Part shown: positions 18,328 to 63,870 of the stretch, in pieces
Layout of the letters: the number at the start of each line of letters is the position of its first letter
Position numbering within the stretch: position 1 is the first letter of the stretch
From: a virus
Length of the DNA: 64,000 nt
Direction: 5' to 3' (one strand)
Virus record (IMG/VR): IMGVR_UViG_3300005732_000005
Coordinates: 64,001-128,000 of that record
Made by a program: the position numbers and the translations under genes
Notes under the pieces: model-generated
Seen by the model: only the letters and a program-made list of their open reading frames with translations
What the model was told of the DNA's origin: nothing
Database searches by the model: none

Positions 18328-19614
18328 TTGTCAAGAATGATTTTTGTTGAGGAGGTGATTTTGAGAGGAATAGAAGATAGTTTTACAGGTACAAAGTTTG
18401 ATACTCCTAAAGGAGGTGTACTTACTGTGCTAGGTCATAATGGTTTGGCAGGGAATAAGAGGAAGTATTTCGTTGAGTGCAACATTTGTAGCAAGGATGA
18501 GGAGTTATTTCCTGATGGTTTTGTCTCCAGTAAAGGTAACCTTTTAATTGGTAGGATTCCGTGTGGCTGTGCTGTTAGTACTAAGTGGACGGAAGATCAA
18601 AGAATTGTCCAGATAAAACGGAAGTGTGAAGAGAGGGGTTACGATTTTCTAGGGTTGGCAGAAGAGTTTAAAGGTGGTCGTACTAAATTGAAGTTGTACA
18701 ATCCCAAAACAAACAATACTTGGGAAAGTTCAAATATAACAGGTTTCCTTCGAGGAAGTGGAGATCCTATTGAAGGGTTTTTGAAAACTAAGGAGGCTAG
18801 TACTTCACTTGATGAGGTACACATTGAAGAGTTTATTAAGACAGGTAAGTTCTTAGAAGGCACAACCTTCACACGTAATACAACTAAGAAGGATTCTAGA
18901 GGAAGGTATCCGTACTGGGATGTAATATGTCCTTTGTGCAGTGATGATGAATACGTGAAGAATCGTGTATGTTCTGGTATTTTTTCATGCGCGACCAGTC
19001 ACCTTAAAAGGGGTAAACTTACCTGCAGGTGCTCCAAAACTTACCGTTGGACACAAGATCAAAGAGAGTATCAAATCGGAAAAGTATGCTCGCAAGAAAA
19101 CCTTACTTTCATTGGTTGGGAGGGAGAGTATAAAAACTGTAAAAGTAAATTTAATTGGAAGTGCTCAGAAGGCCATAGGAACGTAACTTCTTTAAATGAT
19201 TTCTTAAAAGGTATCAGATGTACACAATGTTTTCAAGAATACTCGGTTATTAACGGTTATTACCCTGACCGAACGAAAGAACAAGATTACTTATATATCT
19301 ACTATTTATCTGAGGAGAATTATCTAAAGGTAGGAAGAAGCTTCAACTTAAGCCGAAGGCAAAAAGAGAACCAAATACGTATAAATAACTACAACCCACA
19401 TTCAAAAATACGTGTCCTTAAAACCTTTACAGGTACTCACAAAGATATATACGATCTTGAACAAAAAATCCTATCTGACTTGAAAAGTTTCCAAGTAAAT
19501 GGTTACGGTTCGAGTGAATTATTGTCTGTAGAAGCCTTACCTTCTATATGGAATATCATTAATAGTTGTCAGGAAGTGACTCTATACCAAAATAAACTTA
19601 TAAAAGAGGAATAA
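18328..19614 (+). CDS. Free-standing homing endonuclease, T5orf172/GIY-YIG type with repeated Zn-binding (CapR-like) domains
   Basis: Two CxxC...GxF...L..G..(P/T)CxC...WT repeats; C-terminal YLYIY...YLKVGRS...RR; likely start TTG 18361 after GAGGAGG; TGTTATAAT at 18306. Confidence 0.75.
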   Translation: MSRMIFVEEVILRGIEDSFTGTKFDTPKGGVLTVLGHNGLAGNKRKYFVECNICSKDEELFPDGFVSSKGNLLIGRIPCGCAVSTKWTEDQRIVQIKRKCEERGYDFLGLAEEFKGGRTKLKLYNPKTNNTWESSNITGFLRGSGDPIEGFLKTKEASTSLDEVHIEEFIKTGKFLEGTTFTRNTTKKDSRGRYPYWDVICPLCSDDEYVKNRVCSGIFSCATSHLKRGKLTCRCSKTYRWTQDQREYQIGKVCSQENLTFIGWEGEYKNCKSKFNWKCSEGHRNVTSLNDFLKGIRCTQCFQEYSVINGYYPDRTKEQDYLYIYYLSEENYLKVGRSFNLSRRQKENQIRINNYNPHSKIRVLKTFTGTHKDIYDLEQKILSDLKSFQVNGYGSSELLSVEALPSIWNIINSCQEVTLYQNKLIKEE

Positions 19615-23404: not shown

Positions 23405-23644
23405 TTATTTTTGTAAATCCACCAATTTAATTTCAATAAGGCCACATTTATAACGAGACTGTCCTTCCCACCACTCATCCACTTCGTCGTCAGTTTTCCA
23501 ACCCAAAATCTCATAAGTGTGGTTACTTAGAAACAATTCAATACTATCCGTTTTACAATAATGAGCTGTCTCAATAATAACACCTGAACCTAAAGTGTCA
23601 TGTACAACCCAAAATTTAGGTGAAAGTTTTTGTTGTTTGTTCAT
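23405..23644 (-). CDS. Hypothetical protein
   Basis: AAGGAG RBS before MNKQQ. Confidence 0.5.
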   Translation of the reverse strand: MNKQQKLSPKFWVVHDTLGSGVIIETAHYCKTDSIELFLSNHTYEILGWKTDDEVDEWWEGQSRYKCGLIEIKLVDLQK

Positions 23645-23922: not shown

Positions 23923-24479
23923 TATCTATTCTCCTCAAAATTAATTCTTACACTTTGCCAATACTTATCACTAACAGTTTTCTGACCTTCACACCTGTTT
24001 TTGCAATAATAGAACTTTCCAAACTTACCTTCTTGAGGTGTCATACTTTCTCTACAACAATTACATGTAGGAAATTCTTTATAAAGGTTATTGCTTGCTT
24101 CTTTATTCAACCAAGTAGTGTCATTTAATTTGGTGTAACCTAGGTCAATTAAATCTTCTTCTGATAGTGTTTCTGGATCAAAACGGTCTCTTTGGACATT
24201 TCCTGTTCTAGACTTAAGTGAGTGTGCTAGTTCAAAATCCTTCACTGCATGAGCTAACTCATTTTCAACAGCTTCCTTTGTAGGGATATAACTTCTATCC
24301 CAAGCAGATTCAACACTAGGATCACACTCTTGTCCCAGTTCATTAATGATACCTGCTTCATAAGCTTCGTGGATTCCTACTCTCCCTGCAACATAATCAT
24401 CACAAAAAGCTTCGTGGTCAATACACATATCTAAGGAATCTTGTGCATGTTGTCCAATTACAAAGCCTCCCAAACCCAA
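23922..24479 (-). CDS. Hypothetical protein with C-terminal topoisomerase-type C4 zinc ribbon
   Basis: CNCC...M...GKFGKFYYC...C. Confidence 0.65.
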   Translation of the reverse strand: MGLGGFVIGQHAQDSLDMCIDHEAFCDDYVAGRVGIHEAYEAGIINELGQECDPSVESAWDRSYIPTKEAVENELAHAVKDFELAHSLKSRTGNVQRDRFDPETLSEEDLIDLGYTKLNDTTWLNKEASNNLYKEFPTCNCCRESMTPQEGKFGKFYYCKNRCEGQKTVSDKYWQSVRINFEENR

Positions 24480-24775
24480 GTTTCAACTTTCCTAAGTCTA
24501 CATTTTACAAACTCCTCTCCGTTTTCTAAGCAGTGTTTGGCATCTTTATATCTATTGTCTCCTTGGTACTCTTGCATCCAATATCCTCTCAAATGGTCTG
24601 GTGTAGGTTTATCACAATAATCTTCGTAACAAAAATAAGTATTATTTACAGAAATTAAGTACTTGGTTTGTGGTACACCCTTCCTCCTGTCAACAAGTAT
24701 TTCATCTTCCTCTGTGAAATTATCTACGAGTATGTCTAAGTCTTCTTTAGAAAGGTTGTGTGTTGATGTTACCAT
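24458..24775 (-). CDS. Hypothetical protein
   Basis: GAGGAG RBS. Confidence 0.55.
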   Translation of the reverse strand: MVTSTHNLSKEDLDILVDNFTEEDEILVDRRKGVPQTKYLISVNNTYFCYEDYCDKPTPDHLRGYWMQEYQGDNRYKDAKHCLENGEEFVKCRLRKVETWVWEAL

Positions 24776-24843
24776 TATTTATTCTCCTCAAAATTAATTT
24801 CAACAAAATGTATCTTATCGTAAAAGGGTTGTTTGTGCAAGTG

Positions 24844-26118
24844 TTAAAACTCTATGTCGTAAAAACAGTTTCTATTATCACCAAGCACTTCTTTCCAACC
24901 ATCCCTCATAGTCTGTATCAGAAGGTCTCTATCATTAACTGAAACTACAAAACTATCGTGCCAAGGAAGTACACATTTACTAAGGTTCGTGAACACGTTT
25001 ATAACATAAGCTGCAATCTCAGAATCATAGTGTTGCAACATTGCCCACAAATCTTCTTTACCAAACCAGTGAGCTATATTTTCATTCTTTTCAATAAGCC
25101 TATCGAATATTTTTGTTATATCTCCCTTCCCAAGACGGATACCTTTGAATTCAGACTTTTCTGAGAATATCTTGAACAAAGCTGCTTTTGCTGTTTTAAT
25201 ATCCTTGGAGTTAAGTAGACACATCATAGCATATTTACTTAAAAGTCTGGATGAATTTGTATCATCACCCTCTCCAAGTATATCTTTTATACAACAGTAA
25301 GGTTCCCAACTCATAGGTTTATAAACTTTATCTATTTCCATTAAGATTCTAGGGTGCATCTGTTTAAAATCAACTTCTGTTGTTTTCATTCCATTAATGG
25401 TTATGTGTTTCCTGAACTCAGATCTGGTAGTTTGTAAACAACTTTGAGTGTACCACCTACCATGCTTATCTAAACAGTCAGTGAAAACTCTTTTATATAC
25501 TGCACAAACAGGATGCATTTTACACCTTATATCGAAAGCTTCAAGAACCTTATTATACTTTACTACAAGCTCTCTTTTATTCTTTATACCTCTTAATTTA
25601 CTTAATTCGGTAATAAGGTCTCCCGTCTTAGAATCCCTAAGTTCGATAAATGTTGCAACAGGAAGTGGTCTACCTACACGCTCCATATCTACCTTATCAA
25701 AAACTTCTATAAGTCTATCAGTTATAGTGTAGCAACTTTTTAAACTGGTATTTGTTTCTAGATCAAAGAAACCTTTATACAGATTTATGTAACCTAGTTT
25801 ATCAAGTGTTTCAACAACCCTCTTACACTTTACATAAGAGATCTTACTTCCATTAAGTTCATTTGCCTTTGTGTAATTAGCTTTTCGTAAGGAAAACATG
25901 CTACCACTAAGTCCCTTTTTTATAGGGTTAATAGCTGATGTGATAAAAACCCAAACCTCTTTTTTGTGATTACTAGGTAAGTACTTCATAAAATGATTGT
26001 GGACAGGTATAAGCTTCTTATTCTCATTGAAACCTATATAGAAAGGTTCACAACCTATCGTTATTAATGTTCTGTCTTCTGGAGATAGATCCTTTAGATT
26101 TATTGTCATTACATTCAC
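24844..26118 (-). CDS. Minimal A-superfamily (T7 RNAP/PolA-fold) polymerase with N-terminal wHTH-like region
   Basis: DKHGRWY (DxxGR), EVDFKQMHPRIL (motif A), RLLSK (motif B), LQHYDS, LPWHDSF (motif C). Confidence 0.7.
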   Translation of the reverse strand: MNVMTINLKDLSPEDRTLITIGCEPFYIGFNENKKLIPVHNHFMKYLPSNHKKEVWVFITSAINPIKKGLSGSMFSLRKANYTKANELNGSKISYVKCKRVVETLDKLGYINLYKGFFDLETNTSLKSCYTITDRLIEVFDKVDMERVGRPLPVATFIELRDSKTGDLITELSKLRGIKNKRELVVKYNKVLEAFDIRCKMHPVCAVYKRVFTDCLDKHGRWYTQSCLQTTRSEFRKHITINGMKTTEVDFKQMHPRILMEIDKVYKPMSWEPYCCIKDILGEGDDTNSSRLLSKYAMMCLLNSKDIKTAKAALFKIFSEKSEFKGIRLGKGDITKIFDRLIEKNENIAHWFGKEDLWAMLQHYDSEIAAYVINVFTNLSKCVLPWHDSFVVSVNDRDLLIQTMRDGWKEVLGDNRNCFYDIEF

Positions 26119-26251
26119 CTTCGTTATTTAGGTTAATATTGTTAATCATTATGTAATTTACGCATTTAAGTATATAAGTGGCTCTGGACATACTAGCTCT
26201 ATTAGAATCAATATACTCTAATATAGGTCTAGGAAGTATCAATTTCAACAT
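26048..26251 (-). CDS. Ribbon-helix-helix (CopG-like) protein
   Basis: MLKLILPRPILEYIDSNRASMSRATYI pattern; GGAG RBS. Confidence 0.6.
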   Translation of the reverse strand: MLKLILPRPILEYIDSNRASMSRATYILKCVNYIMINNINLNNEGECNDNKSKGSISRRQNINNDRL

Positions 26252-26344
26252 AAGTATTTCTCCAATAAGTATGTATATAGTTAGAAAGGGGAGTTCATAT
26301 GGTTCGCTAAAAACTATAAAACCTATATAAAATAATCACTTAAC

Positions 26345-26593
26345 CTACGTTTTTTGAATTCGGTTTGTTAAATGTATCTCTATTTCACCTCCCAATACCT
26401 TAATAACTTCTACTATTACATCCACACTTACATCAGATCCTGACCTAGTTAAAATAGAGGTTAATTGGGATTTGTGAAAACCTCCATCTCCCATCGCAAC
26501 TATTTGGTCGTAGGTGAGCTTGTTTTCATACTTGAGAGTTTTAACTATATCGCAAAGCTTGCTTTTAACATTCATTTGATTTCTCCTGTTCAT
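26345..26593 (-). CDS. XRE-family HTH protein
   Basis: LTYDQIV...HKSQLTSIL...VSVDVIVEVIKVLGG; likely start 26575 after AGGAG; TGGTATAAT at 26599-26607. Confidence 0.65.
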   Translation of the reverse strand: MNRRNQMNVKSKLCDIVKTLKYENKLTYDQIVAMGDGGFHKSQLTSILTRSGSDVSVDVIVEVIKVLGGEIEIHLTNRIQKT

Positions 26594-26822
26594 AATACAT
26601 TATACCATGAATATTTCTATATACCAAGTTTCCTGAACAACTATAAAAGTAGGTAGGTTTTATCAAGATTATTCTCCTACAAATTACCCCTATTATACAA
26701 CTATGGTGCCCTCTAAGACGTAAGTCTATGTTTCATAAGGAAAAGCACCTCTAAAATTACCTATCACTGGAACACTAAAAAACCACTCCCATTTGCAACA
26801 ATTTTCCTTCGAAATAATGACC

Positions 26823-27104
26823 TCATCTCAACTTCACACTACTGGCACAAAACTTATAGCTAGAACAATCATTAGCCACAATATGCTTGCCAATAAAAGT
26901 TTTCATATGTTCAATAAATTCATCATTTGTCATATCATCTAGTGTATCCACATCTCCAAAGGTGCCATCTTCATCATCAATTGCAAAATCAATAATTACA
27001 ACACCTCCAGTAGTTGTCTCTACAATAAACCCTTCGAAATAGGATTGTTCCCACACATCATCATAACCCTCTTCCACACCTACAATTTCACCTTCAATCT
27101 TCAT
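26823..27104 (-). CDS. Hypothetical acidic protein
   Basis: GAGG RBS. Confidence 0.55.
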   Translation of the reverse strand: MKIEGEIVGVEEGYDDVWEQSYFEGFIVETTTGGVVIIDFAIDDEDGTFGDVDTLDDMTNDEFIEHMKTFIGKHIVANDCSSYKFCASSVKLR

Positions 27105-29127: not shown

Positions 29128-29847
29128 TTAAATAAACTCATCCTCTTTAAGTTTCTTATGTAAATAAAGCTCACCTTTTCCAGTGACCATTGTTACATTG
29201 AAAACTCGACTGTTCCTAGTAGTCTGTTTCACCACAAAGTAACCTTGATCCACAAATCTTTGGTAAGGGCGGTTGTTGTCCATAAGGATCTTAAGTTCTC
29301 TTAATTTATCGTATAGCTTATTCCTGCCTACACCAAGAGCTTTCGCTACACTATTCATATCCTGCAGATTAACTACCTCACTAACATCATTGGCGAAATC
29401 AATCTTGTGCTGATTGTCTTTTCTGAAAATCAGTCCTTCTCTGATTATAGTTTTAGCATCTGCAGGTAAGTCTTTGTAGAATGTCTCCATAATAAGGTCT
29501 ACATCACTAACAAAACCACCTGTCTTACGTATTGTTGGTAATACTTCTTCCATCACCCAATCTTGGAATTCTTCTGCATTAGACATCCTACTCCTCATTA
29601 CCAACCTATACACATCTTTCTCAGGGATGAGTTTAATACCTGTAGGTTTTGCATCCATACCTAATTCTAACGTTTCGTTATAATTAAGTTTAATCAAGAA
29701 CTTACAATGGTCTTTTAAGGTTTTACTAGGATTTGTGTACTCTAGTATCTTACAAACCTCGTTACCTACAAAATAAGGTTTATCCTCATAAACCACCACT
29801 TCCAATTGACCAAAAACTTCATGGTCAAACTTATTCACTTTCGTCAT
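29128..29847 (-). CDS. BRO-N / KilA-C (ANT) antirepressor-type DNA-binding protein
   Basis: FQDWVMEEVLPTIRKTG; GRNKL...NRPYQRFVDQGYF...VTGKG. Confidence 0.9.
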   Translation of the reverse strand: MTKVNKFDHEVFGQLEVVVYEDKPYFVGNEVCKILEYTNPSKTLKDHCKFLIKLNYNETLELGMDAKPTGIKLIPEKDVYRLVMRSRMSNAEEFQDWVMEEVLPTIRKTGGFVSDVDLIMETFYKDLPADAKTIIREGLIFRKDNQHKIDFANDVSEVVNLQDMNSVAKALGVGRNKLYDKLRELKILMDNNRPYQRFVDQGYFVVKQTTRNSRVFNVTMVTGKGELYLHKKLKEDEFI

Positions 29848-45458: not shown

Positions 45459-46238
45459 TTAACTCTTAACAACACCCTTAAACACTTGAGCGATTTCATT
45501 GATATTCATTTTACTCTTTGCTTCGAATAAGTCAAGACTTTCTTGAACAATTTTTGTTGTGCAGACAATATTATCTTTAGAGACAGGTTTTGTCTTATCC
45601 TTCACCCACACAGAACGGTCTGACAAGCTCTCTGGCAAACTATTTCCTGTTAGCTGACACTTCTTACGCAAGAGAGTTCTTTTGTAGTCAGAGAATCGTA
45701 CATCAAGCCTGCCACCACTGTCAACAATTAGTTCTCCCCACTCAGAGAACATCTTAGTAACATTCACTTCTTCTAAACGTTTCTTTCTCTCACGAGCTTC
45801 ATTTGCCAGACGAATATTCTCTTTAGCAATGTTACTCTTGATGTCAAGGTATGGCTTCTGTCGATCAGATAATACTTCTGGAGAGTTGAATAGTTTTGTC
45901 AAGGATTTGACAAGGTTTTCTTCCTCCACAGTGTTTGCGACAAGGGATTCTCCTCTATCGATAATAACGTTCTTGATGTCATTGGCTACCTTTGTCACCC
46001 ATACACAGTTTTCAAGAGAGTAAGGCATCTCTGAGTTGATACGTTCTATCGTAGGGTAGTAATTATGGTTACTGCTTTTATTGAAAACAAACTTCTTGTT
46101 GGTATAAGCACAATTCTCCGTAGAGCGTAATTTGTAAAAGTGTTCAAACTCTTCAAGAGAGAAATTCCATGCAAGGTTACGTTTTGCTGCAAGTTCTTTC
46201 TTGTGGTTGTAATATTCTTTGATAGACATGTTTGACAT
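45459..46238 (-). CDS. Tandem HNH-like/Srd-like domain protein
   Basis: CAYT...PTIERINSEMPYSLENCV...AN, plus a degenerate second copy KKCQLTG...SKDNIV. Confidence 0.55.
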   Translation of the reverse strand: MSNMSIKEYYNHKKELAAKRNLAWNFSLEEFEHFYKLRSTENCAYTNKKFVFNKSSNHNYYPTIERINSEMPYSLENCVWVTKVANDIKNVIIDRGESLVANTVEEENLVKSLTKLFNSPEVLSDRQKPYLDIKSNIAKENIRLANEARERKKRLEEVNVTKMFSEWGELIVDSGGRLDVRFSDYKRTLLRKKCQLTGNSLPESLSDRSVWVKDKTKPVSKDNIVCTTKIVQESLDLFEAKSKMNINEIAQVFKGVVKS

Positions 46239-48366: not shown

Positions 48367-48792
48367 TTAGTGTGCTCCAGCCCACCCTTCTGTGTGATGA
48401 GCTACCAAGTATTCCCCTGTAATGTGTACAGGACAGTTTAATTCCTTGTAGGCATCCTCTATACACCTTACCATTAACTCACCTGCTCTGGAGTAGCACC
48501 TTCCTATACTTCCGTCCTCAAGAACTTTAGTATTACCTGAAAGTATAAATTTTCCACCCTCAAGATTATCAGCCTGATCTTTTGCCTCTATGATACACTT
48601 GAGTTGCTCCATTGTCATGTTGTATTCTTTTAGCATTTCTTTAGCTGTCTTATAGGGCTTCCCTTTTGATTTAGCTTTCTTAGATTTAGCTACATCTGCA
48701 AGTAATCTTTTTACAAGGTCTTGATCTGAAAAACCTGTTTCAAATCTCTTCCATCGGACAAGTTTGTCTGGAACTTGTAGCTGGTATTCATC
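48367..48792 (-). CDS. DNA polymerase family A, exon 3
   Basis: Begins DEYQLQVP, completing motif C H|DE; ends GWAGAH. Confidence 0.9.
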   Translation of the reverse strand, partial: DEYQLQVPDKLVRWKRFETGFSDQDLVKRLLADVAKSKKAKSKGKPYKTAKEMLKEYNMTMEQLKCIIEAKDQADNLEGGKFILSGNTKVLEDGSIGRCYSRAGELMVRCIEDAYKELNCPVHITGEYLVAHHTEGWAGAH

Positions 48793-49021
48793 CTTCCTGT
48801 TATAAGAGTCGTTAGCTCTTTCTGAGATCACTCTCAGTGTCGGGTCATATCACATTCCACGAGGGAATCCCACCGTTTCAGATACACTTGTATCCTACGA
48901 ACAACTACGTTCTGACCTCCGCACGTTCCCTTTCGGGCTTCGCTCAGGATTACCTCGTAAGGCTTCCCTGAATTAGATGGGTTTTTCGACATACATTGCT
49001 GTATGAAGCCACAATGAGTTT
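48793..49021 (-). ncRNA. Group I intron 2 (229 nt, no ORF) in polymerase motif C
   Basis: P1 CCAU|AA with UUGUGG (U.G at splice site); terminal G; P10 UCAUU/GAUGA; P7 GAGGUCA/UGACCC; removal restores YYHDE. Confidence 0.9.
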
Positions 49022-49354
49022 ATGGTAGTAAATGGTCCTAGCTACACCCTTATCCAACAAACCTTCTTCTAAAGCTCTCTCGTGCCACAAAATACCTGCC
49101 AAATCCATCCCTATAGCTCCTGCACTTTGGAGATAACAATTTAACAATGAGTGCTTACTTCGTGTCCAGATTTTTCTTCCGTCAACGGCAACGATATACT
49201 TTTTACCTGAAGATTCCCAAACTTTCTCTAGATGTTCCTTTCTTTTCTTTAATCCGATGTTTCCATCCCAGAAAGCATCAATAACTTTTTGTCCTACTTC
49301 CTTACTTACTCCTAACATATTTGCTATTTTAGGGGCTGCTGCACCATACATTAT
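49022..49354 (-). CDS. DNA polymerase family A, exon 2 (111 codons)
   Basis: IMYGA...DGRKI...SKHSLLNCYLQSAGAI...YYH. Confidence 0.9.
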
Positions 49355-49648
49355 CGTTACAGTCACACAAGGTCGTTAATCTTGCGCGGTTCTCTTATGA
49401 ACTCCTGTACGTCTCCGTACAGACTAGACTATATCTTTCTCTTCAACTTTACTTGTTAAGAGATCTGCCGTTTCGATTTAAAGCTTTCCGCTACCACTTG
49501 GCTCTACTCCCATCTCAGGGATAGTCGTTACACGTTCAAGAACATAATGTTCAAGCTTCGCTCGGTATTGTCTCTTCAAAAGAAGTAACTTCCACCGAAT
49601 TAGACAGTATTCAATTATAGGTTTCCCTATAAAGGGGCTAATTATTTA
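49355..49648 (-). ncRNA. Group I intron 1 (294 nt, no ORF) in polymerase motif B
   Basis: P1 GGU|UAA with UUAGCC; P7 ACGACUA/UAGUCU and AAGAUAUAGUC S element; terminal G; removal restores RQGGKGITYG|IMYG. Confidence 0.93.
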
Positions 49649-51607
49649 ACCATAAGTGATGCCTTTGCCACCTTGCCTAGTTACCTCCCTTCCTGCAGCC
49701 TTGGAGTAGTTTTCAGCATTTCTTGAGTGAGCATCTTCTTCCTCCATTATCCTAAGATATTCTCCTCCGTCAAAGTCATAGGCTGCCCACGCTGCACACA
49801 TCCCTTCCAAGTTACTACCATCGATACCTAGTTGCCAGAATCCTTTTGGAACGGTGAATAAGCTCCTCATTTCATGACCTAAAAGTGCATCTGTAGAAGG
49901 TATATTTGCTATAACTGAGTGTTTTCTGCGATTCGTATTGGTCAGACCACTATATCTTGCAGGTAATTTACCATCTATTTTCAGACGAGGGTGGTTCAGC
50001 CAACCAGTTTCCTTATCTTCGTCAAAAGCTTTAATTACCGACCTCCTGTTACGAAGAGATAGCCACTTAACTATCTGACCCGCCATCTCACCATCAATCT
50101 TTTCCAGATTAGGGCAAAGCTCCCCACGATCATCTTTCAACTTTGCAGACATCGGTAAGAATCTTCCCTTTTTAACCACCCTTTGCATATCTTTGTGCTT
50201 CTCAGAGGTGATTTTCCTAATATCGAAGCCCATCTCCTCATTAATCCATTTTATGTAGATGGAGTCCTTCTTATCCTGCACCCATTCCCATGCCCTTTCC
50301 AAGACTTCAAATTCTGGGCGGTTCTTCTTGTTCTCGTCTCTTGTAACATCTTTTGTTCCTAGTATGGTAGGTATCCAACCACCTTCCTTAACCAACCACT
50401 CCTTTATATCTGCCTGATTAGCTAGTTTCATCGGCTCTTTTAAGAACTCTTCTGGAATATGTCTATCCTCTAATTGTTTTCTTAGTTTCTTCATCTGGTC
50501 ATCAGGTAAAGGAACTAAGGTATTAGCTTTATTAAGCTGACCACGTATAAAATCGGGCATCTTATCTTCATCCTCCACACCCATCTTAATACAATAGTTA
50601 TAACCGTTCTTACTTAGAGATCCGTCCTTCTTAAAGGCAGTTTTCGGAGGAGATACGTGTTGAAAGTATTCCTCATTAGGTTTGTAGCCTAAATACTTTC
50701 TTGCATAGTTCCATCCGTGACTACTTATTTCCCCTGCCTTATCAAAAGGATTAGCTGGAAAGTTAGGTTGACGACTCTCAGGTACATGTTTTAAAGGCAG
50801 TTTGGGTTCCACATCTTCCTCTATTTCCCTCATCATACTATCCACTTTCTCAAGCAATTTCCAAGCAGCCTTTTCATCGAAGACTACTCCCTGCTCCTCT
50901 TGGATTTGCATCAGATAGTCTGATTGAGAATTTCTTAATAAGGGAACTCTCCAATCAATACCCTTATCCTTCCCATCCTGAGATTCTTTAACCAAAGCTT
51001 GCCATTGCAATTCATTTATGATCACATCAACCCATACTCTGTCGCAATACTTCCACAAAGGTAGCCCTCTCCAGTCTTCTATTTGAACTTTTTGATTTGC
51101 AAGCTTATAGCCCCAGCTCTCTAATGAATGGCTGCCAATCGTCTTAGCCTTACCTCCAGAAGGATTCTTAACCTTAGAGGGACATCCGTGAGGTAATGGT
51201 CGGTCAGGGTATAGTGCCCTTGACATACTTAGTGTATCAAACAATCTTAGTTTTCTACTACCAATACTTTCTGGAAACATACTTGATTCCAATCCAAATT
51301 GATCAGCGATTGCCAGCAAATCGAATCCAAACTGGTTTTGACAACCTATAGCAGAAATGTCAGAGTCGTTCTCAATCCAATCAGGAAACTCTTTTAAATC
51401 TTTAATTCTTAGGTTGACATTTTTCTTATCAACAAATTCTTTTGCTTCTTTAAACTCGGGATGGGAGTGATCAAGAAAGATCACCCAATCATCTTTTGCA
51501 TATTGTTTAAAGAGCATTACGTGAAAGTGCGTCATATGGTCTTCAGGTGCAATGCTTTTACCAGCTAAACCGTCACTTTCAGTATCGTAAATATATAAGC
51601 CCTTCAA
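49649..51607 (-). CDS. DNA polymerase family A, exon 1 (3'-5' exonuclease, motif A); spliced product 905 aa
   Basis: YDTESDG ExoI; HSLESWG; TNTNRRKH...NIPS; GIDGSNLE motif A; Tyr at the Pol I 762-equivalent site. Confidence 0.92.
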
Positions 51608-51620
51608 TACTTATCTCCTC

Positions 51621-53447
51621 TTAAAATGGTTCATCATCTTCCATATCTTCTTCGAAGTCGGGTAGAGGATCAAAGGTTTCTTCCTTCTCGTCGTCCCCTG
51701 CAACCGCTACCTCAGGTTCTTGATATCTTTGAACAGGTGTCCATTCACTCAACCTTTGACAGTATTCATCTTCAAGAAAGCCTTCAGGAGGCTCATCCAG
51801 AACCCCTGTATCTACATCATAGAACAAAGGTATTTTTGCTGTCCTACCGAACTTCCTATCATCTAGAACTAGGAAATGCCGTGTGTTTCTGACTTTTTCT
51901 GGTTGCTCAGGATCTTTATTGCCTTCTAATCCGAACATGTAGTGACAGGCTTGCATCATCGATCTAGATCCACGGAACTGACTACTCATAATCTTACCAC
52001 CAAACTCGTGAGAAGGACCTCTCTCGGGAGCTTTCAGGTGGCAAAAGCAGTAGTAAGTAAAACCTAAATCTTGACTCATCTTACTAATCTCATCAGCAAA
52101 TCTTTCCAACTCTGTGTTGGCTTCTGCAGCACTCATACCAGCAGTTAAACGAGTAATAGGATCAATAAAAATATCCTCTATATGCTCTACTAATACAGCG
52201 TGTCGTATAGCCCCCTTCAACTCATCCCAATTACAACGACCATAGTTATTGTACATCACTAATTTATGACCTACAGAGTCTACAGCTTCTGTCAATTCTT
52301 CATGAGTGAAGTAACTATTTTTAACAGTTTCATCTAAAGGGTTTCCCCATATATCTACTTCATTACCTTCGTTATTTATGAATATAATTTTCTCAGGATC
52401 AGAAAAGTTCTTCCTGTAAAACTTACCTGCTACTTTCTTGACAGTTTCATCTGGTTGCTCTTCAAATTTGAACAGAGCTACCTTTTGCGGATCTCCAAGT
52501 TTGTTTTTATCGTGAGTTGTTATGTGCTCAGTCAAAGTATCTACGATAACAGATTTACCCATCTTAACCCCTGCACCAAAGTAATACCCCTCGCCTATAC
52601 GTCTACCTAACGTAACTTTAGTAAGGCTTTTCCAAGGCCAAGGTTTACCTAGTGTAGGTAACTCAATAGCTTTATCACGGATTTCATCATATTTAACAAA
52701 ACCTTCAGGTGTAAACTGGATCGGCTTCATTAACGTCCAATAAAACTCTTCCTCTCCAAGTTCTTCCCAAGCTTCGCAAGGGTCTTTATCTTCAGGTAAA
52801 CTCACAACTTTGATATCTGGTAGGAGTCCATACACATTTGCCGTTGCTTCTTTACCCTTAACAATACCTTTTACTTTTTCATCGGCCGTTGCAGAATCGT
52901 TGTCAAAACATAGTATGTTTTCTGGGAACTTTTTCAAGTACTTTAAGTTATGTTTTTGGCCTATATTTTGAACTGCTGTAGCCGTACCGTTAGATATTGA
53001 AACAACACTTGGATTCCCAGAGGGATATTTGTTTTTTAGAGTTTGCCAAACAATCATGGCATCAAATTCACCTTCTGTGATCCAAATCTTCTTACCTCCA
53101 GTCTTATTGGATGCGTGAGTGCCAAACAAATCACATTTTATACCTTGATAACCAACCACATCAAAATGTCCTGCCTGCTGTTTAGGTTTTGTTAAATCTC
53201 TTTTCTTAAAACCTACAAGCTCTCCGTCAATGTGGTAAGGGAAGTAATAGGCGATAGGAGTTATACCGTCTTTACCACTGTAAGCAGTTCTAACACCGAA
53301 TTTCTCTGCAGTTTTCTTACCGATACCTCTACTATCGATCGCATCACAAGGGTAATTTAATATGTCCTCTAAAGTCTCTTTTGTGTAAGTCATCTTCTTA
53401 TTACCCCCTGTTCTTTTGTTCTTATAATAACCATCAGAATTTCCCAA
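51621..53447 (-). CDS. Primase-helicase (T7 gp4-like)
   Basis: TOPRIM ITEGEFDA and FDND; Walker A GAGVKMGKS; FIDPIT; FRGS; likely start ~53393. Confidence 0.92.
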   Translation of the reverse strand: MGNSDGYYKNKRTGGNKKMTYTKETLEDILNYPCDAIDSRGIGKKTAEKFGVRTAYSGKDGITPIAYYFPYHIDGELVGFKKRDLTKPKQQAGHFDVVGYQGIKCDLFGTHASNKTGGKKIWITEGEFDAMIVWQTLKNKYPSGNPSVVSISNGTATAVQNIGQKHNLKYLKKFPENILCFDNDSATADEKVKGIVKGKEATANVYGLLPDIKVVSLPEDKDPCEAWEELGEEEFYWTLMKPIQFTPEGFVKYDEIRDKAIELPTLGKPWPWKSLTKVTLGRRIGEGYYFGAGVKMGKSVIVDTLTEHITTHDKNKLGDPQKVALFKFEEQPDETVKKVAGKFYRKNFSDPEKIIFINNEGNEVDIWGNPLDETVKNSYFTHEELTEAVDSVGHKLVMYNNYGRCNWDELKGAIRHAVLVEHIEDIFIDPITRLTAGMSAAEANTELERFADEISKMSQDLGFTYYCFCHLKAPERGPSHEFGGKIMSSQFRGSRSMMQACHYMFGLEGNKDPEQPEKVRNTRHFLVLDDRKFGRTAKIPLFYDVDTGVLDEPPEGFLEDEYCQRLSEWTPVQRYQEPEVAVAGDDEKEETFDPLPDFEEDMEDDEPF

Positions 53448-62946: not shown

Positions 62947-63870
62947 ATGCTTTGGAACACTGGAGGGTTTATGGCTACAAGTAAAGTATTTACTAAAGGG
63001 AAGAGATACTTCTCGGAAAAGTATGGTTGGGCACAGATTGTTGAGTACAGAGATAAGTATGACGTACTTATAAGATTTGATAGGACAGGTACTATATCTT
63101 CTGTAACTTGTGCTTCGTTAAGAGGGTGTTCTTTTCAGGATCTCAACCAACCTACCTTACTTGGTGTAGGTTACAGAGGTTATGGGAAGTACTCTACGAG
63201 AAGTTCTGATAAGAACGGTAAATCAAGTTCATACCTCTACTGGCAAAGGATGTTAAGACGTTGTTATGACCCCAAGTGTGCTGATTATAAAGATTATGGT
63301 GCGAAGGGTATTACTGTTTGTAAAGAGTGGCATAACTTTCAGAATTTTTCTGAGTGGTTTTATTCTCAAAAGAACCATACAAGGAAAGGTTACCATTTAG
63401 ATAAAGATCTAACTGTTAGAGGTAATAAGATCTATTGTGCAAAGGCTTGTAATTTAATACCCGCAGAGTTAAACATTATGAATATAGATAAGATTGCAAA
63501 AAAGTTTTCCGTTAGTTCAGCAGGTAATTACAGGTTCAGTTCTAGGGAAGGTGGGTATTACTCTTCTTACGAAGAGTGTAAAAAGGAGTATACTAAGTTT
63601 AAAAGAATTAAACTGGGAAACCTGATAATTAAAAACTATGAGGAAGGTTTGATACCTTATGAAGTTTACAAGAATCTTCTATTTATATTGAATGATAATT
63701 TTCCCTCTGAAAGTGTAGATGAGTTTTCTTTATGTAATATGGACACACCAGAAGATACGGTGAAAGATATTATAGATCTTTTACCAGAAGTTAATGCACC
63801 AGAGGGGTGTTACCATCTTTTGAATAAACTAGTGGGTAAGGTTGAATGGGATAACAAACATTATAAATAA
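62947..63870 (+). CDS. HNH-type homing endonuclease
   Basis: YWQRMLRRCY...ITVCKEWHNFQNF...LDKD...GNKIY...C. Confidence 0.8.
   Translation: MLWNTGGFMATSKVFTKGKRYFSEKYGWAQIVEYRDKYDVLIRFDRTGTISSVTCASLRGCSFQDLNQPTLLGVGYRGYGKYSTRSSDKNGKSSSYLYWQRMLRRCYDPKCADYKDYGAKGITVCKEWHNFQNFSEWFYSQKNHTRKGYHLDKDLTVRGNKIYCAKACNLIPAELNIMNIDKIAKKFSVSSAGNYRFSSREGGYYSSYEECKKEYTKFKRIKLGNLIIKNYEEGLIPYEVYKNLLFILNDNFPSESVDEFSLCNMDTPEDTVKDIIDLLPEVNAPEGCYHLLNKLVGKVEWDNKHYK

Follow-up and report, generated by a model that had tools for sequence, protein, structure and literature searches.

A predicted thumb-less family-A polymerase of the divPolA2 family encoded behind HTH and ribbon-helix-helix genes in a phage genome

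Bases 64001–128000 of the 140,374-bp virus record IMGVR_UViG_3300005732_000005 (hereafter the window, 64,000 nucleotides in all) contain on the minus strand a cassette in which genes for an XRE-type helix-turn-helix (HTH) protein and a ribbon-helix-helix (RHH) protein precede a gene for a minimal family-A polymerase. Sequence comparison and structure modeling indicate that the product of the last gene is very probably a member of divPolA2, a family-A polymerase that looks active and seems to have no thumb. By sequence the gene belongs to this family, described in 2024, and the kind of enzyme is therefore not new. Three observations are added here. First, divPolA2 in the wide sense splits on sequence signatures into a DNA-polymerase-like E...DE clade, which includes the family reference AUR84708, and an H...DS clade, which includes the window gene and ORF100 of cholera phage ICP1. 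Second, the HTH-RHH-polymerase order recurs in distant relatives. Third, in a single lineage the gene stands next to a Rep_3 initiator. As to function, we tentatively favor an early, low-processivity (distributive) starter or priming polymerase, a reading drawn from sequence, model and analogy.

Sequence and conservation of the polymerase

The elements of the cassette, in their 5′ to 3′ order, are as follows.

26599..26635, minus strand: predicted host-type promoter (−35 element TTGGTA at 26627–26622, 17-nt spacer, extended −10 element TGgTATAAT at 26607–26599)
26345..26575, minus strand: XRE-type HTH gene, 76 amino acids (aa) from the probable ATG at 26575, behind AGGAG at 26587–26583
26252..26344, minus strand: 93-nt spacer between the HTH and RHH genes, with a box GCGAACCATATGAAC kept in the three closest relatives
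26048..26251, minus strand: gene of a 67-aa RHH protein (phrog_31326; structure model)
24844..26118, minus strand: minimal family-A polymerase gene (divPolA2 family, H...DS clade; phrog_4756, E 3e-129)

The polymerase open reading frame (ORF) is open for 424 codons from a GTG at 26118. Homologues and the public gene call begin at an ATG at 26109, the probable start, which gives a protein of 421 aa. A preliminary description of this DNA had reported a 424-aa protein with four ordered motifs. The motifs are present in the order DKHGRWY (residues 217–223), EVDFKQMHPR (248–257), RLLSK (291–295) and WHDSF (386–390), and they are not due to chance. An alignment of 191 relatives shows no exception at R221 and R236; G220, D250, R291, K295, H387 and D388 are each retained in at least 186 sequences, and both catalytic Asp residues that had been claimed (D250 and D388) are among them. 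Y223, Q229, E248, H255, Q362, D365 and S366 are nearly invariant. D217, the first residue of DKHGR, is variable among the relatives. Therefore only G-R counts as a hallmark, and the "DxxGR" signature proposed earlier had to be narrowed. At the O-helix the Tyr-Gly position does read Asn-Ser (N303-S304), as had been noticed; at position 303 the relatives have Asn in the majority (138 sequences), Tyr in 24 and Phe in 24.

A search of 1.8 billion representatives yielded 2,632 clusters of relatives at E≤1e-3, counted at 50% identity, most of them of ~430 aa. In longer relatives the sole extra domain was T4_baseplate, in what is probably a gene-call fusion. Within PHROGs the protein falls into phrog_4756, a group of unknown function. 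No Pfam family was matched by the polymerase at E≤1, DNA_pol_A and RNA_pol included, and RNA_pol was matched by just one of 64 relatives, weakly (E 0.0046). NCBIfam gave no match, a PDB sequence search with the family profile gave a chance match only, and hhalign of the small polymerase against the replicase of the same phage returned 0.2% probability. The family hidden Markov model (HMM) scored below significance against T7 RNA polymerase (RNAP) and Pol I, though local alignments landed on the expected motifs. A phmmer match to an "EF hand family protein" (9d5n, E 1.8e-4) was dropped as compositional, since it was absent with the family profile. A PADLOC match to AbiA (E 0.005, 13 bits) was taken as chance, and no other match to known defence families was obtained.

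Fold and active site

An AlphaFold2 model of the polymerase was built on 64 sequences and had a predicted local distance difference test score (pLDDT) of 94.3 and a predicted template modeling score (pTM) of 0.92. Foldseek comparison with the PDB gave 86 matches at E≤1e-3, and every match listed was a family-A DNA polymerase (DNAP). Apicoplast PolA (apPol), Klenow, Bst, Taq, Pol theta and Pol nu were the leaders, with E values of 1e-6 to 1e-4 to Pol I enzymes. In an exhaustive structural alignment with 48,161 PDB representatives, the 21 best matches (Z 6.4–14.7) were without exception family-A DNAPs or T7-type RNAPs. Individual Z scores were 14.7 for apPol, 13.5 for Aquifex Pol I and Pol nu, 13.4 for yeast mitochondrial RNAP, 13.2 for Klenow, 13.0 for T7 RNAP and 8.2 for N4 RNAPII. 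All polymerase matches span residues ~154–424, and DNA and RNA polymerases are tied. The T7-RNAP/PolA fold, with palm and fingers, that had been proposed from the motifs is thus borne out by the model.

Residues 1–147 are modeled as a small N-terminal unit and a winged-helix-like domain (~48–147). The latter matches winged-helix proteins with a modest Z of ~5, in agreement with the N-terminus envisaged in the preliminary description. The predicted lack of an exonuclease domain was likewise seen in the model, where only the winged-helix-like domain stands ahead of the polymerase core. Between this domain and the G-R hairpin (G220-R221) there are only ~60 residues (~154–215) with a single 16-residue helix (178–193), and a thumb of the Pol I type therefore appears to be missing or vestigial. 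The enzyme illustrates the extent to which a polymerase of Pol I/T7 type may be reduced, to a core of ~270 residues plus a DNA-binding head.

Active-site positions were mapped onto Pol I and T7 RNAP, with the reference motifs checked on the actual T7 and E. coli records.

Hairpin Arg: Pol I R668; T7 RNAP R425; window protein R221
Motif A Asp: Pol I D705; T7 RNAP D537; window protein D250
Sugar-gate position: Pol I E710; T7 RNAP G542; window protein H255
Motif B Arg: Pol I R754; T7 RNAP R627; window protein R291
Motif B Lys: Pol I K758; T7 RNAP K631; window protein K295
Dideoxynucleotide/sugar position: Pol I F762; T7 RNAP M635; window protein M299
O-helix Tyr: Pol I Y766; T7 RNAP Y639; window protein N303
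Minor-groove contact: Pol I Q849; T7 RNAP H784; window protein Q362
Motif C: Pol I H881-D882-E883; T7 RNAP H811-D812-S813; window protein H387-D388-S389

By this mapping the active site appears to have every residue needed to bind metal and contact the triphosphate. In it the DNA-polymerase-like Q362 is combined with the RNA-polymerase-like M299 and H-D-S, and both Pol I residues that exclude ribonucleotides are replaced, E710 by H255 and F762 by M299.

Two clades of divPolA2

The divPolA2 family was named by Yutin, Tolstoy, Mutz, Wolf, Krupovic and Koonin (2024, Virol J 21:200; PMC11348598), with AUR84708 of Vibrio phage 1.063.O as reference. It was described as an extra PolA of ~430 aa with an active palm, no exonuclease, no recognizable thumb and an N-terminal domain of unknown nature; one to three copies were found per phage, structural matches were to DNAPs and mitochondrial RNAP, and repair or RNA polymerase roles were suggested (PMC11348598). 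BLASTP aligned AUR84708 with the window protein at 24% identity over 279 aa (E 1e-13), and the HMM of the window gene's relatives matched it with E 1.6e-45. With >2,600 clusters at 50% identity the family is very large, and well-studied phage groups, including that of ICP1, carry members of it.

In the relatives of AUR84708 a Glu at the E710 position and a [F/Y]-D-E motif C were found in 30 of 30 sequences. The relatives of the window gene have His at this gate in 173 of 191 sequences and Gln in 13, H-D-S in 175, and a combination of His with D-E in only 2. Overall, a Glu gate pairs with D-E in 33 of 33 sequences, and a non-Glu gate does so in only 2 of ~190. An unrooted maximum-likelihood tree of 105 sequences places the E...DE set on one side of a branch with an SH-like approximate likelihood ratio test value of 99. 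ORF100 of ICP1 is of the H type, with H-D-A as motif C. This signature difference is not a stated divPolA2 criterion, and the family is taken here in the wide sense.

Both clades can be found in one genome: S4-7 has one gene of each type, and phage 249E41-1 has one E...DE gene alongside two of the H...DS type. Such co-residence argues for different jobs. The window phage has a single H...DS gene, and no second copy of the small polymerase was found in its genome by protein, reference protein or HMM search. The paired clades constitute a natural experiment on sugar selection in the superfamily.

The RHH and HTH genes and their recurrence upstream of relatives

The RHH gene overlaps the polymerase gene by 62 nt in a different frame. 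Its product had no Pfam match. The structure model consists of an extended stretch (residues 1–7) and two helices (8–17 and 23–36), with pLDDT >83 for residues 1–40; the C-terminal tail from about residue 41 models poorly, with pLDDT <50 from residue 49. Nearly all of the top 50 structural neighbors of the 67-aa protein among 48,161 chains are RHH proteins, including Arc, the CopG-like ORF56, omega, ParG, NikR and many antitoxins, with Z scores of 2.6–4.0 that are low, as expected for a 40-residue domain. The RHH fold and the overlap noticed in the preliminary description are both upheld.

The XRE-type gene, which had correctly been placed ahead of the RHH gene, gave a sub-threshold match to HTH_37 (E 4e-5; 23.7 bits, cut-off 27) and a match to phrog_2339, "HTH DNA binding protein". 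The reading frame stays open as far as 26593, but its first ATG sits at or before the predicted transcript start, which makes the ATG at 26575 the likely start codon.

Nineteen close homologues of the 67-aa protein besides itself were found. At 10 other loci, 9 of them distinct (L005 and L006 are near-identical), the polymerase gene is immediately preceded by a small ORF that is homologous or analogous. The phages with an equivalent small ORF are 249E41-1 and PWH3a-P1 (two paralogs each), J2-1, S4-7, an IMG/VR contig and ICP1 (ORF99). By locus, an RHH-like ORF directly upstream of the polymerase or overlapping it is seen in the window, L001, L005/L006, L008, L015, L016, ICP1, L020 and L022. 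An XRE-HTH gene, mostly one step beyond the RHH gene, is seen upstream in the window, L001, L005/L006, L008, L009, L015, L016, ICP1 (ORF98) and L021. Wherever an RHH partner was seen, the polymerase gene was of the H...DS type; none was found at the E...DE genes examined.

At the other end of the cassette, directly downstream of the polymerase gene, a 105-aa gene is located (24458–24775, minus strand; phrog_11441, unknown function), and a "conserved hypothetical" gene is likewise placed after the polymerase in 249E41-1. In S4-7 an endonuclease-like gene (L015 4257–5069) overlaps the 3′ end of the small polymerase gene.

Promoter and surrounding DNA

The predicted host-type promoter in front of the HTH gene is accompanied by a dyad CAGGAAACTTG (26635–25) that overlaps the −35 element and reads CAAGAAACTTG/A in relatives. 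It is a possible operator. Promoter and dyad are retained in relatives down to 32% polymerase identity, and ICP1 has an annotated σ70 promoter at the equivalent place, just before ORF98. Judging by these features the three genes look like one early, host-transcribed unit, which is probably autoregulated. The extended −10 word TGTTATAAT (TGnTATAAT) is the commonest intergenic word of the genome, present in ~10–13 of 91 intergenic segments. Its abundance suggests wide use of the host σ70 polymerase independent of a −35 element.

A repeated phage-specific promoter was not detected in the 140 kb by a recurring-word search, which does not reach degenerate promoters. Beyond Shine-Dalgarno-like words, only a few unrelated words of 12–13 nt were found, with four copies each. 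Iterons, dyad arrays and origin-like repeats were absent from 24700–27000, where direct and inverted repeats are ordinary. Folding was not unusual either for the DNA of 26594–26822 (z +1.16) or for the RNA of the 93-nt HTH-RHH spacer (z 0.1). No terminators were found around the cassette, and Rfam had no match there. The segment 26252–26822 is mostly the HTH gene and an ordinary host-type promoter. Without repeats, structure or phage promoters, nothing here points positively to an origin or to transcription in the T7 style.

Genome setting

The record has 68-bp terminal repeats. Tail sheath, tape measure and baseplate genes, together with an intron-split DNAP and a gp4-type primase-helicase, indicate that the virus is a myovirus. 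Its closest relatives are Vibrio and Pseudoalteromonas phages of 120–140 kb (249E41-1, 11895-B1, J2-1 and VnaP), and ICP1 is among the more distant ones. The regular replication genes of the window are listed below.

48367..51607, minus strand: replicative DNAP gene in three coding pieces, 49646–51607, 48950–49366 and 48367–48831 (phrog_17, phrog_8888 and phrog_6375)
51621..53447, minus strand: gp4-type DNA primase-helicase gene (phrog_239, E 1e-146)

The small polymerase is thus encoded in addition to a regular replicase, as the preliminary description had proposed and as the description of divPolA2 has it. Its neighbors in the window are small ORFs of unknown function, and the sole helicase found, of the gp4 type, is 25 kb away. 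The G+C content of the cassette is similar to that of the surrounding early block.

Two group I introns split the replicative DNAP gene, whose first coding piece stops right after motif B. The Rfam Intron_gpI matches are at 49405–49657 (74.9 bits, above gathering) and 48821–49031 (33.5 bits, E 7e-6, below gathering). The window also contains three homing-type endonuclease genes, at 18328–19614 (plus strand), 45459–46238 (minus strand) and 62947–63870 (plus strand), assigned to phrog_681 (endonuclease) and to phrog_3118 and phrog_2081 (HNH). An anti-repressor gene of the Ant/Bro-N type (29128–29847, minus strand; phrog_130, E 5e-61) lies within the leftward early block shared with the cassette, and a similar anti-repressor-type gene, ORF89, is found upstream of the cassette in ICP1.

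Relatives next to Rep_3 initiators and on plasmids

An H...DS gene stands behind a Rep_3 (Rep3_N plus Rep3_C) initiator gene in two GC-rich fragments, of phage or phage-plasmid type, that are nearly identical to each other (L013 2643–4663; L014 607–3212). TerL, capsid, protease and portal genes are located near this pair, and in L014 a BrnT/BrnA toxin-antitoxin pair separates the Rep_3 and polymerase genes.

A few alphaproteobacterial plasmids carry relatives, one copy being cut by IS21. This copy, on the Thioclava electrotropha plasmid pTElox9 (L031 6812–7747), is truncated at its 5′ end by the IS21 element and stands between an AbiE toxin-antitoxin pair and a methyltransferase/DEAD-box helicase cluster.

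Possible roles of the enzyme

What favors the starter or priming role is the apparent lack of a thumb, the DNA-binding head, the RHH gene coupled to that of the polymerase, the Rep_3 neighbor in one lineage and the precedent of CcPol-MP. The last is a polymerase of SCCmec from the TV-Pol group, which has been shown experimentally to be a primase and which needs a small partner (Bebel et al. 2020, eLife 9:e55478, PMC7581432; see also Rice 2022, bioRxiv 10.1101/2022.12.02.518924). TV-Pols in general are minimal superfamily-A polymerases of viruses and mobile elements, predicted to be primase-polymerases (Iyer, Abhiman and Aravind 2008, Biol Direct 3:39, PMC2579912).

In the scheme that we propose, host RNAP would transcribe the XRE-HTH, RHH and polymerase genes early from the σ70 extended −10 promoter, with the polymerase gene last. 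The overlap of the RHH and polymerase genes suggests that their translation is probably coupled. The winged-helix-like N-terminal domain, possibly with the RHH and/or HTH protein, would bring the polymerase to DNA. There it would start or extend short nucleic-acid chains, and the intron-split replicase would then take over. As the thumb appears to be only vestigial, the enzyme should be distributive and its products short. They may be RNA or mixed, since the E710 and F762 residues are lost and H-D-S is RNAP-like. Such a starter role would resemble the one proposed for TV-Pols and demonstrated for CcPol-MP. The RHH/HTH pair may also, or instead, autoregulate the promoter via the dyad over the −35 element. 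Chain starting or RNA synthesis by such an enzyme, if true, would change the view of replication or transcription in these phages and might provide a useful small enzyme.

Several points weigh against this scheme. The phage already has a gp4-type primase-helicase, so an extra primase is not obviously needed. Origin-like repeats, hairpins and iterons were not found near the cassette, no helicase gene is adjacent, unlike in TV-Pols, and the link to Rep_3 comes from one lineage, represented by two nearly identical contigs. Active family-A enzymes almost always have Tyr at the O-helix position where the window protein has Asn, and the bulky His at the E710 position might still exclude ribonucleotides.

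A rather unlikely alternative, in our estimate, is that the protein is a miniature single-subunit RNAP for a subset of phage genes, with the HTH and/or RHH protein as a promoter-specificity or regulatory factor. The H-D-S motif C, the Met at the T7 M635 position and the loss of both ribonucleotide-excluding residues of Pol I point in this direction, as do the Z scores to yeast mitochondrial and T7 RNAPs, which tie with those to DNAPs, and the one weak RNA_pol match within the family. The nearest Atlas cluster was automatically named "DNA-directed RNA polymerase family protein". N4 RNAPII, whose matched subunit has 404 aa and which needs gp2, shows that small enzymes of this fold can transcribe. 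The option was left open by Yutin et al. (PMC11348598), and since ICP1 is said to encode no RNAP (PMC9040626), a hidden one would fill a gap. The DNA, however, offers no repeated phage-specific promoter: no word of at least 12 nt recurs beyond the Shine-Dalgarno-like and sporadic four-copy words, and the commonest word is the host-type TGTTATAAT. The protein has neither a T7-type specificity loop nor a promoter-binding N-terminal domain; the equivalents of T7 Y639, H784 and G542 are Asn, Gln and His. The sister E...DE clade is DNAP-like, so the family is not uniformly RNAP-like.

A bolder and comparably doubtful proposal concerns the entire H...DS clade, to which the window gene, ICP1 ORF100 and the majority of the 2,600 clusters belong. 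Its members would synthesize RNA, and no smaller single-subunit RNA polymerases or RNA primases would be known; the winged-helix domain and a dedicated RHH partner would direct them to DNA, and the co-resident E...DE enzymes would be a DNA-synthesizing sister group. If H...DS proteins were RNA polymerases, ICP1-like phages, thought to be without any such enzyme, would carry one.

We consider it unlikely that the enzyme is an accessory DNAP that repairs phage DNA, fills gaps in it or bypasses lesions, with HTH and RHH proteins as ordinary operon regulators. Its top structural matches are DNAPs (apPol, Pol I, Pol nu and Pol theta), two of which, Pol nu and Pol theta, act in repair or bypass. Q362 equals Q849 of Pol I and not H784 of T7 RNAP, a proofreading domain is lacking, and the gene neighborhood varies across the family. 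Repair is also among the options of Yutin et al. (PMC11348598). Yet E710, F762 and E883 of Pol I are all replaced, the gene stands among small early genes with no repair genes adjacent, and repair polymerases are not typically coupled so tightly and recurrently to an overlapping RHH gene.

Quite improbable is an enzyme of counter-defence or host takeover, making, for example, decoy or protective nucleic acid. It would suit a location in an early block of small accessory genes beside an anti-repressor-like gene, the one to three paralogs per genome in relatives, a pattern common for arms-race genes, and the AbiE and methyltransferase genes near the Thioclava plasmid copy. Against it, PADLOC matched no known defence family apart from the chance AbiA match, and residues contacting template and primer are strongly kept, which fits ordinary templated synthesis.

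The captured plasmid-type replicon of the preliminary description, a copG-rep-like unit replicating autonomously from a nearby origin with the polymerase as a site-specific initiator, is very improbable: the RHH-then-initiator order does recall copG-repB of pMV158, and relatives do occur beside Rep_3 in small phage or phage-plasmid fragments and on alphaproteobacterial plasmids, but 24700–27000 lacks iterons, dyad arrays and structured DNA (26252–26822 in particular has no iterons, hairpins, origin-like repeats or unusual structure), the polymerase is neither an HUH nor a Rep_3 initiator, and the cassette, with its promoter in place and G+C content like that of the surrounding early block, looks kept within the phage group rather than recently acquired.

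Comparison with known systems

In pMV158, an RHH gene, copG, is followed by the initiator gene repB. The window cassette shares with it a small RHH gene immediately upstream of, and predicted to be co-transcribed with, a gene for a replication-related enzyme. The downstream protein of pMV158 is an HUH nickase, whereas that of the window has a polymerase fold, and no origin was found in the window.

T7 RNAP and N4 RNAPII have in common with the window protein the palm-fingers fold, the G-R hairpin, H-D-S and the Met at the M635 position. The window enzyme is under half the size of T7 RNAP, lacks promoter-recognition elements and a Pfam RNA_pol match, has N303, Q362 and H255 in place of Y639, H784 and G542, and comes from a genome in which the recurring-word search found no phage promoter set.

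The likeness to TV-Pols suggested in the preliminary description is reasonable. The Arg of the hairpin (R221), the two catalytic Asp (D250 and D388) and the RxxxK fingers motif (R291...K295) are shared. The thumb of TV-Pols consists of two antiparallel helices, whereas the model of the window protein shows one short helix in that stretch; TV-Pols are fused or linked to D5-like helicases, and no helicase adjoins the window gene. The family HMM weakly matched a 515-aa polymerase-like ORF of Microcystis phage Ma-LMM01 (L030, ~23445–23564; E 0.003 per genome, 40 residues). The match covers the stretch from GR to motif A, and the ORF also has D-x4-H and H-D-G. It is probably the TV-Pol of that phage, whose genome is a listed TV-Pol carrier. 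Since D-x4-H and the related H-D-G are found in this ORF too, the H...DS clade and TV-Pols may be close kin.

CcPol-MP is the only tested example of such an enzyme starting chains de novo, and it too is a family-A polymerase in truncated form, encoded together with a small protein as its partner. This partner is an OB-fold single-stranded DNA binder encoded downstream, with a helicase next in the operon, whereas the partner in the window is an RHH protein encoded upstream; homology between the two partners was neither observed nor looked for. CcPol retains E710 and F762 against ribonucleotides and prefers deoxynucleotides (PMC7581432), in contrast to the window protein with its H255 and M299.

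The closest known system is divPolA2 itself, and the window taken alone provides a further member of this family published in 2024. The reference AUR84708 falls into the separate clade with Glu at the E710 position and F-D-E as motif C, where the window gene has H255 and H-D-S; neither the HTH-RHH cassette nor the two clade signatures were described in the divPolA2 paper (PMC11348598). The window protein resembles divPolA2 in its length of ~430 aa, in a palm and fingers that contain motifs A, B and C, in having no exonuclease and apparently no canonical thumb but a globular N-terminal domain, in being encoded besides the regular DNAP by a gene present in one to three paralogs per phage, and in structural matches that tie between DNAPs and mitochondrial/T7 RNAPs.

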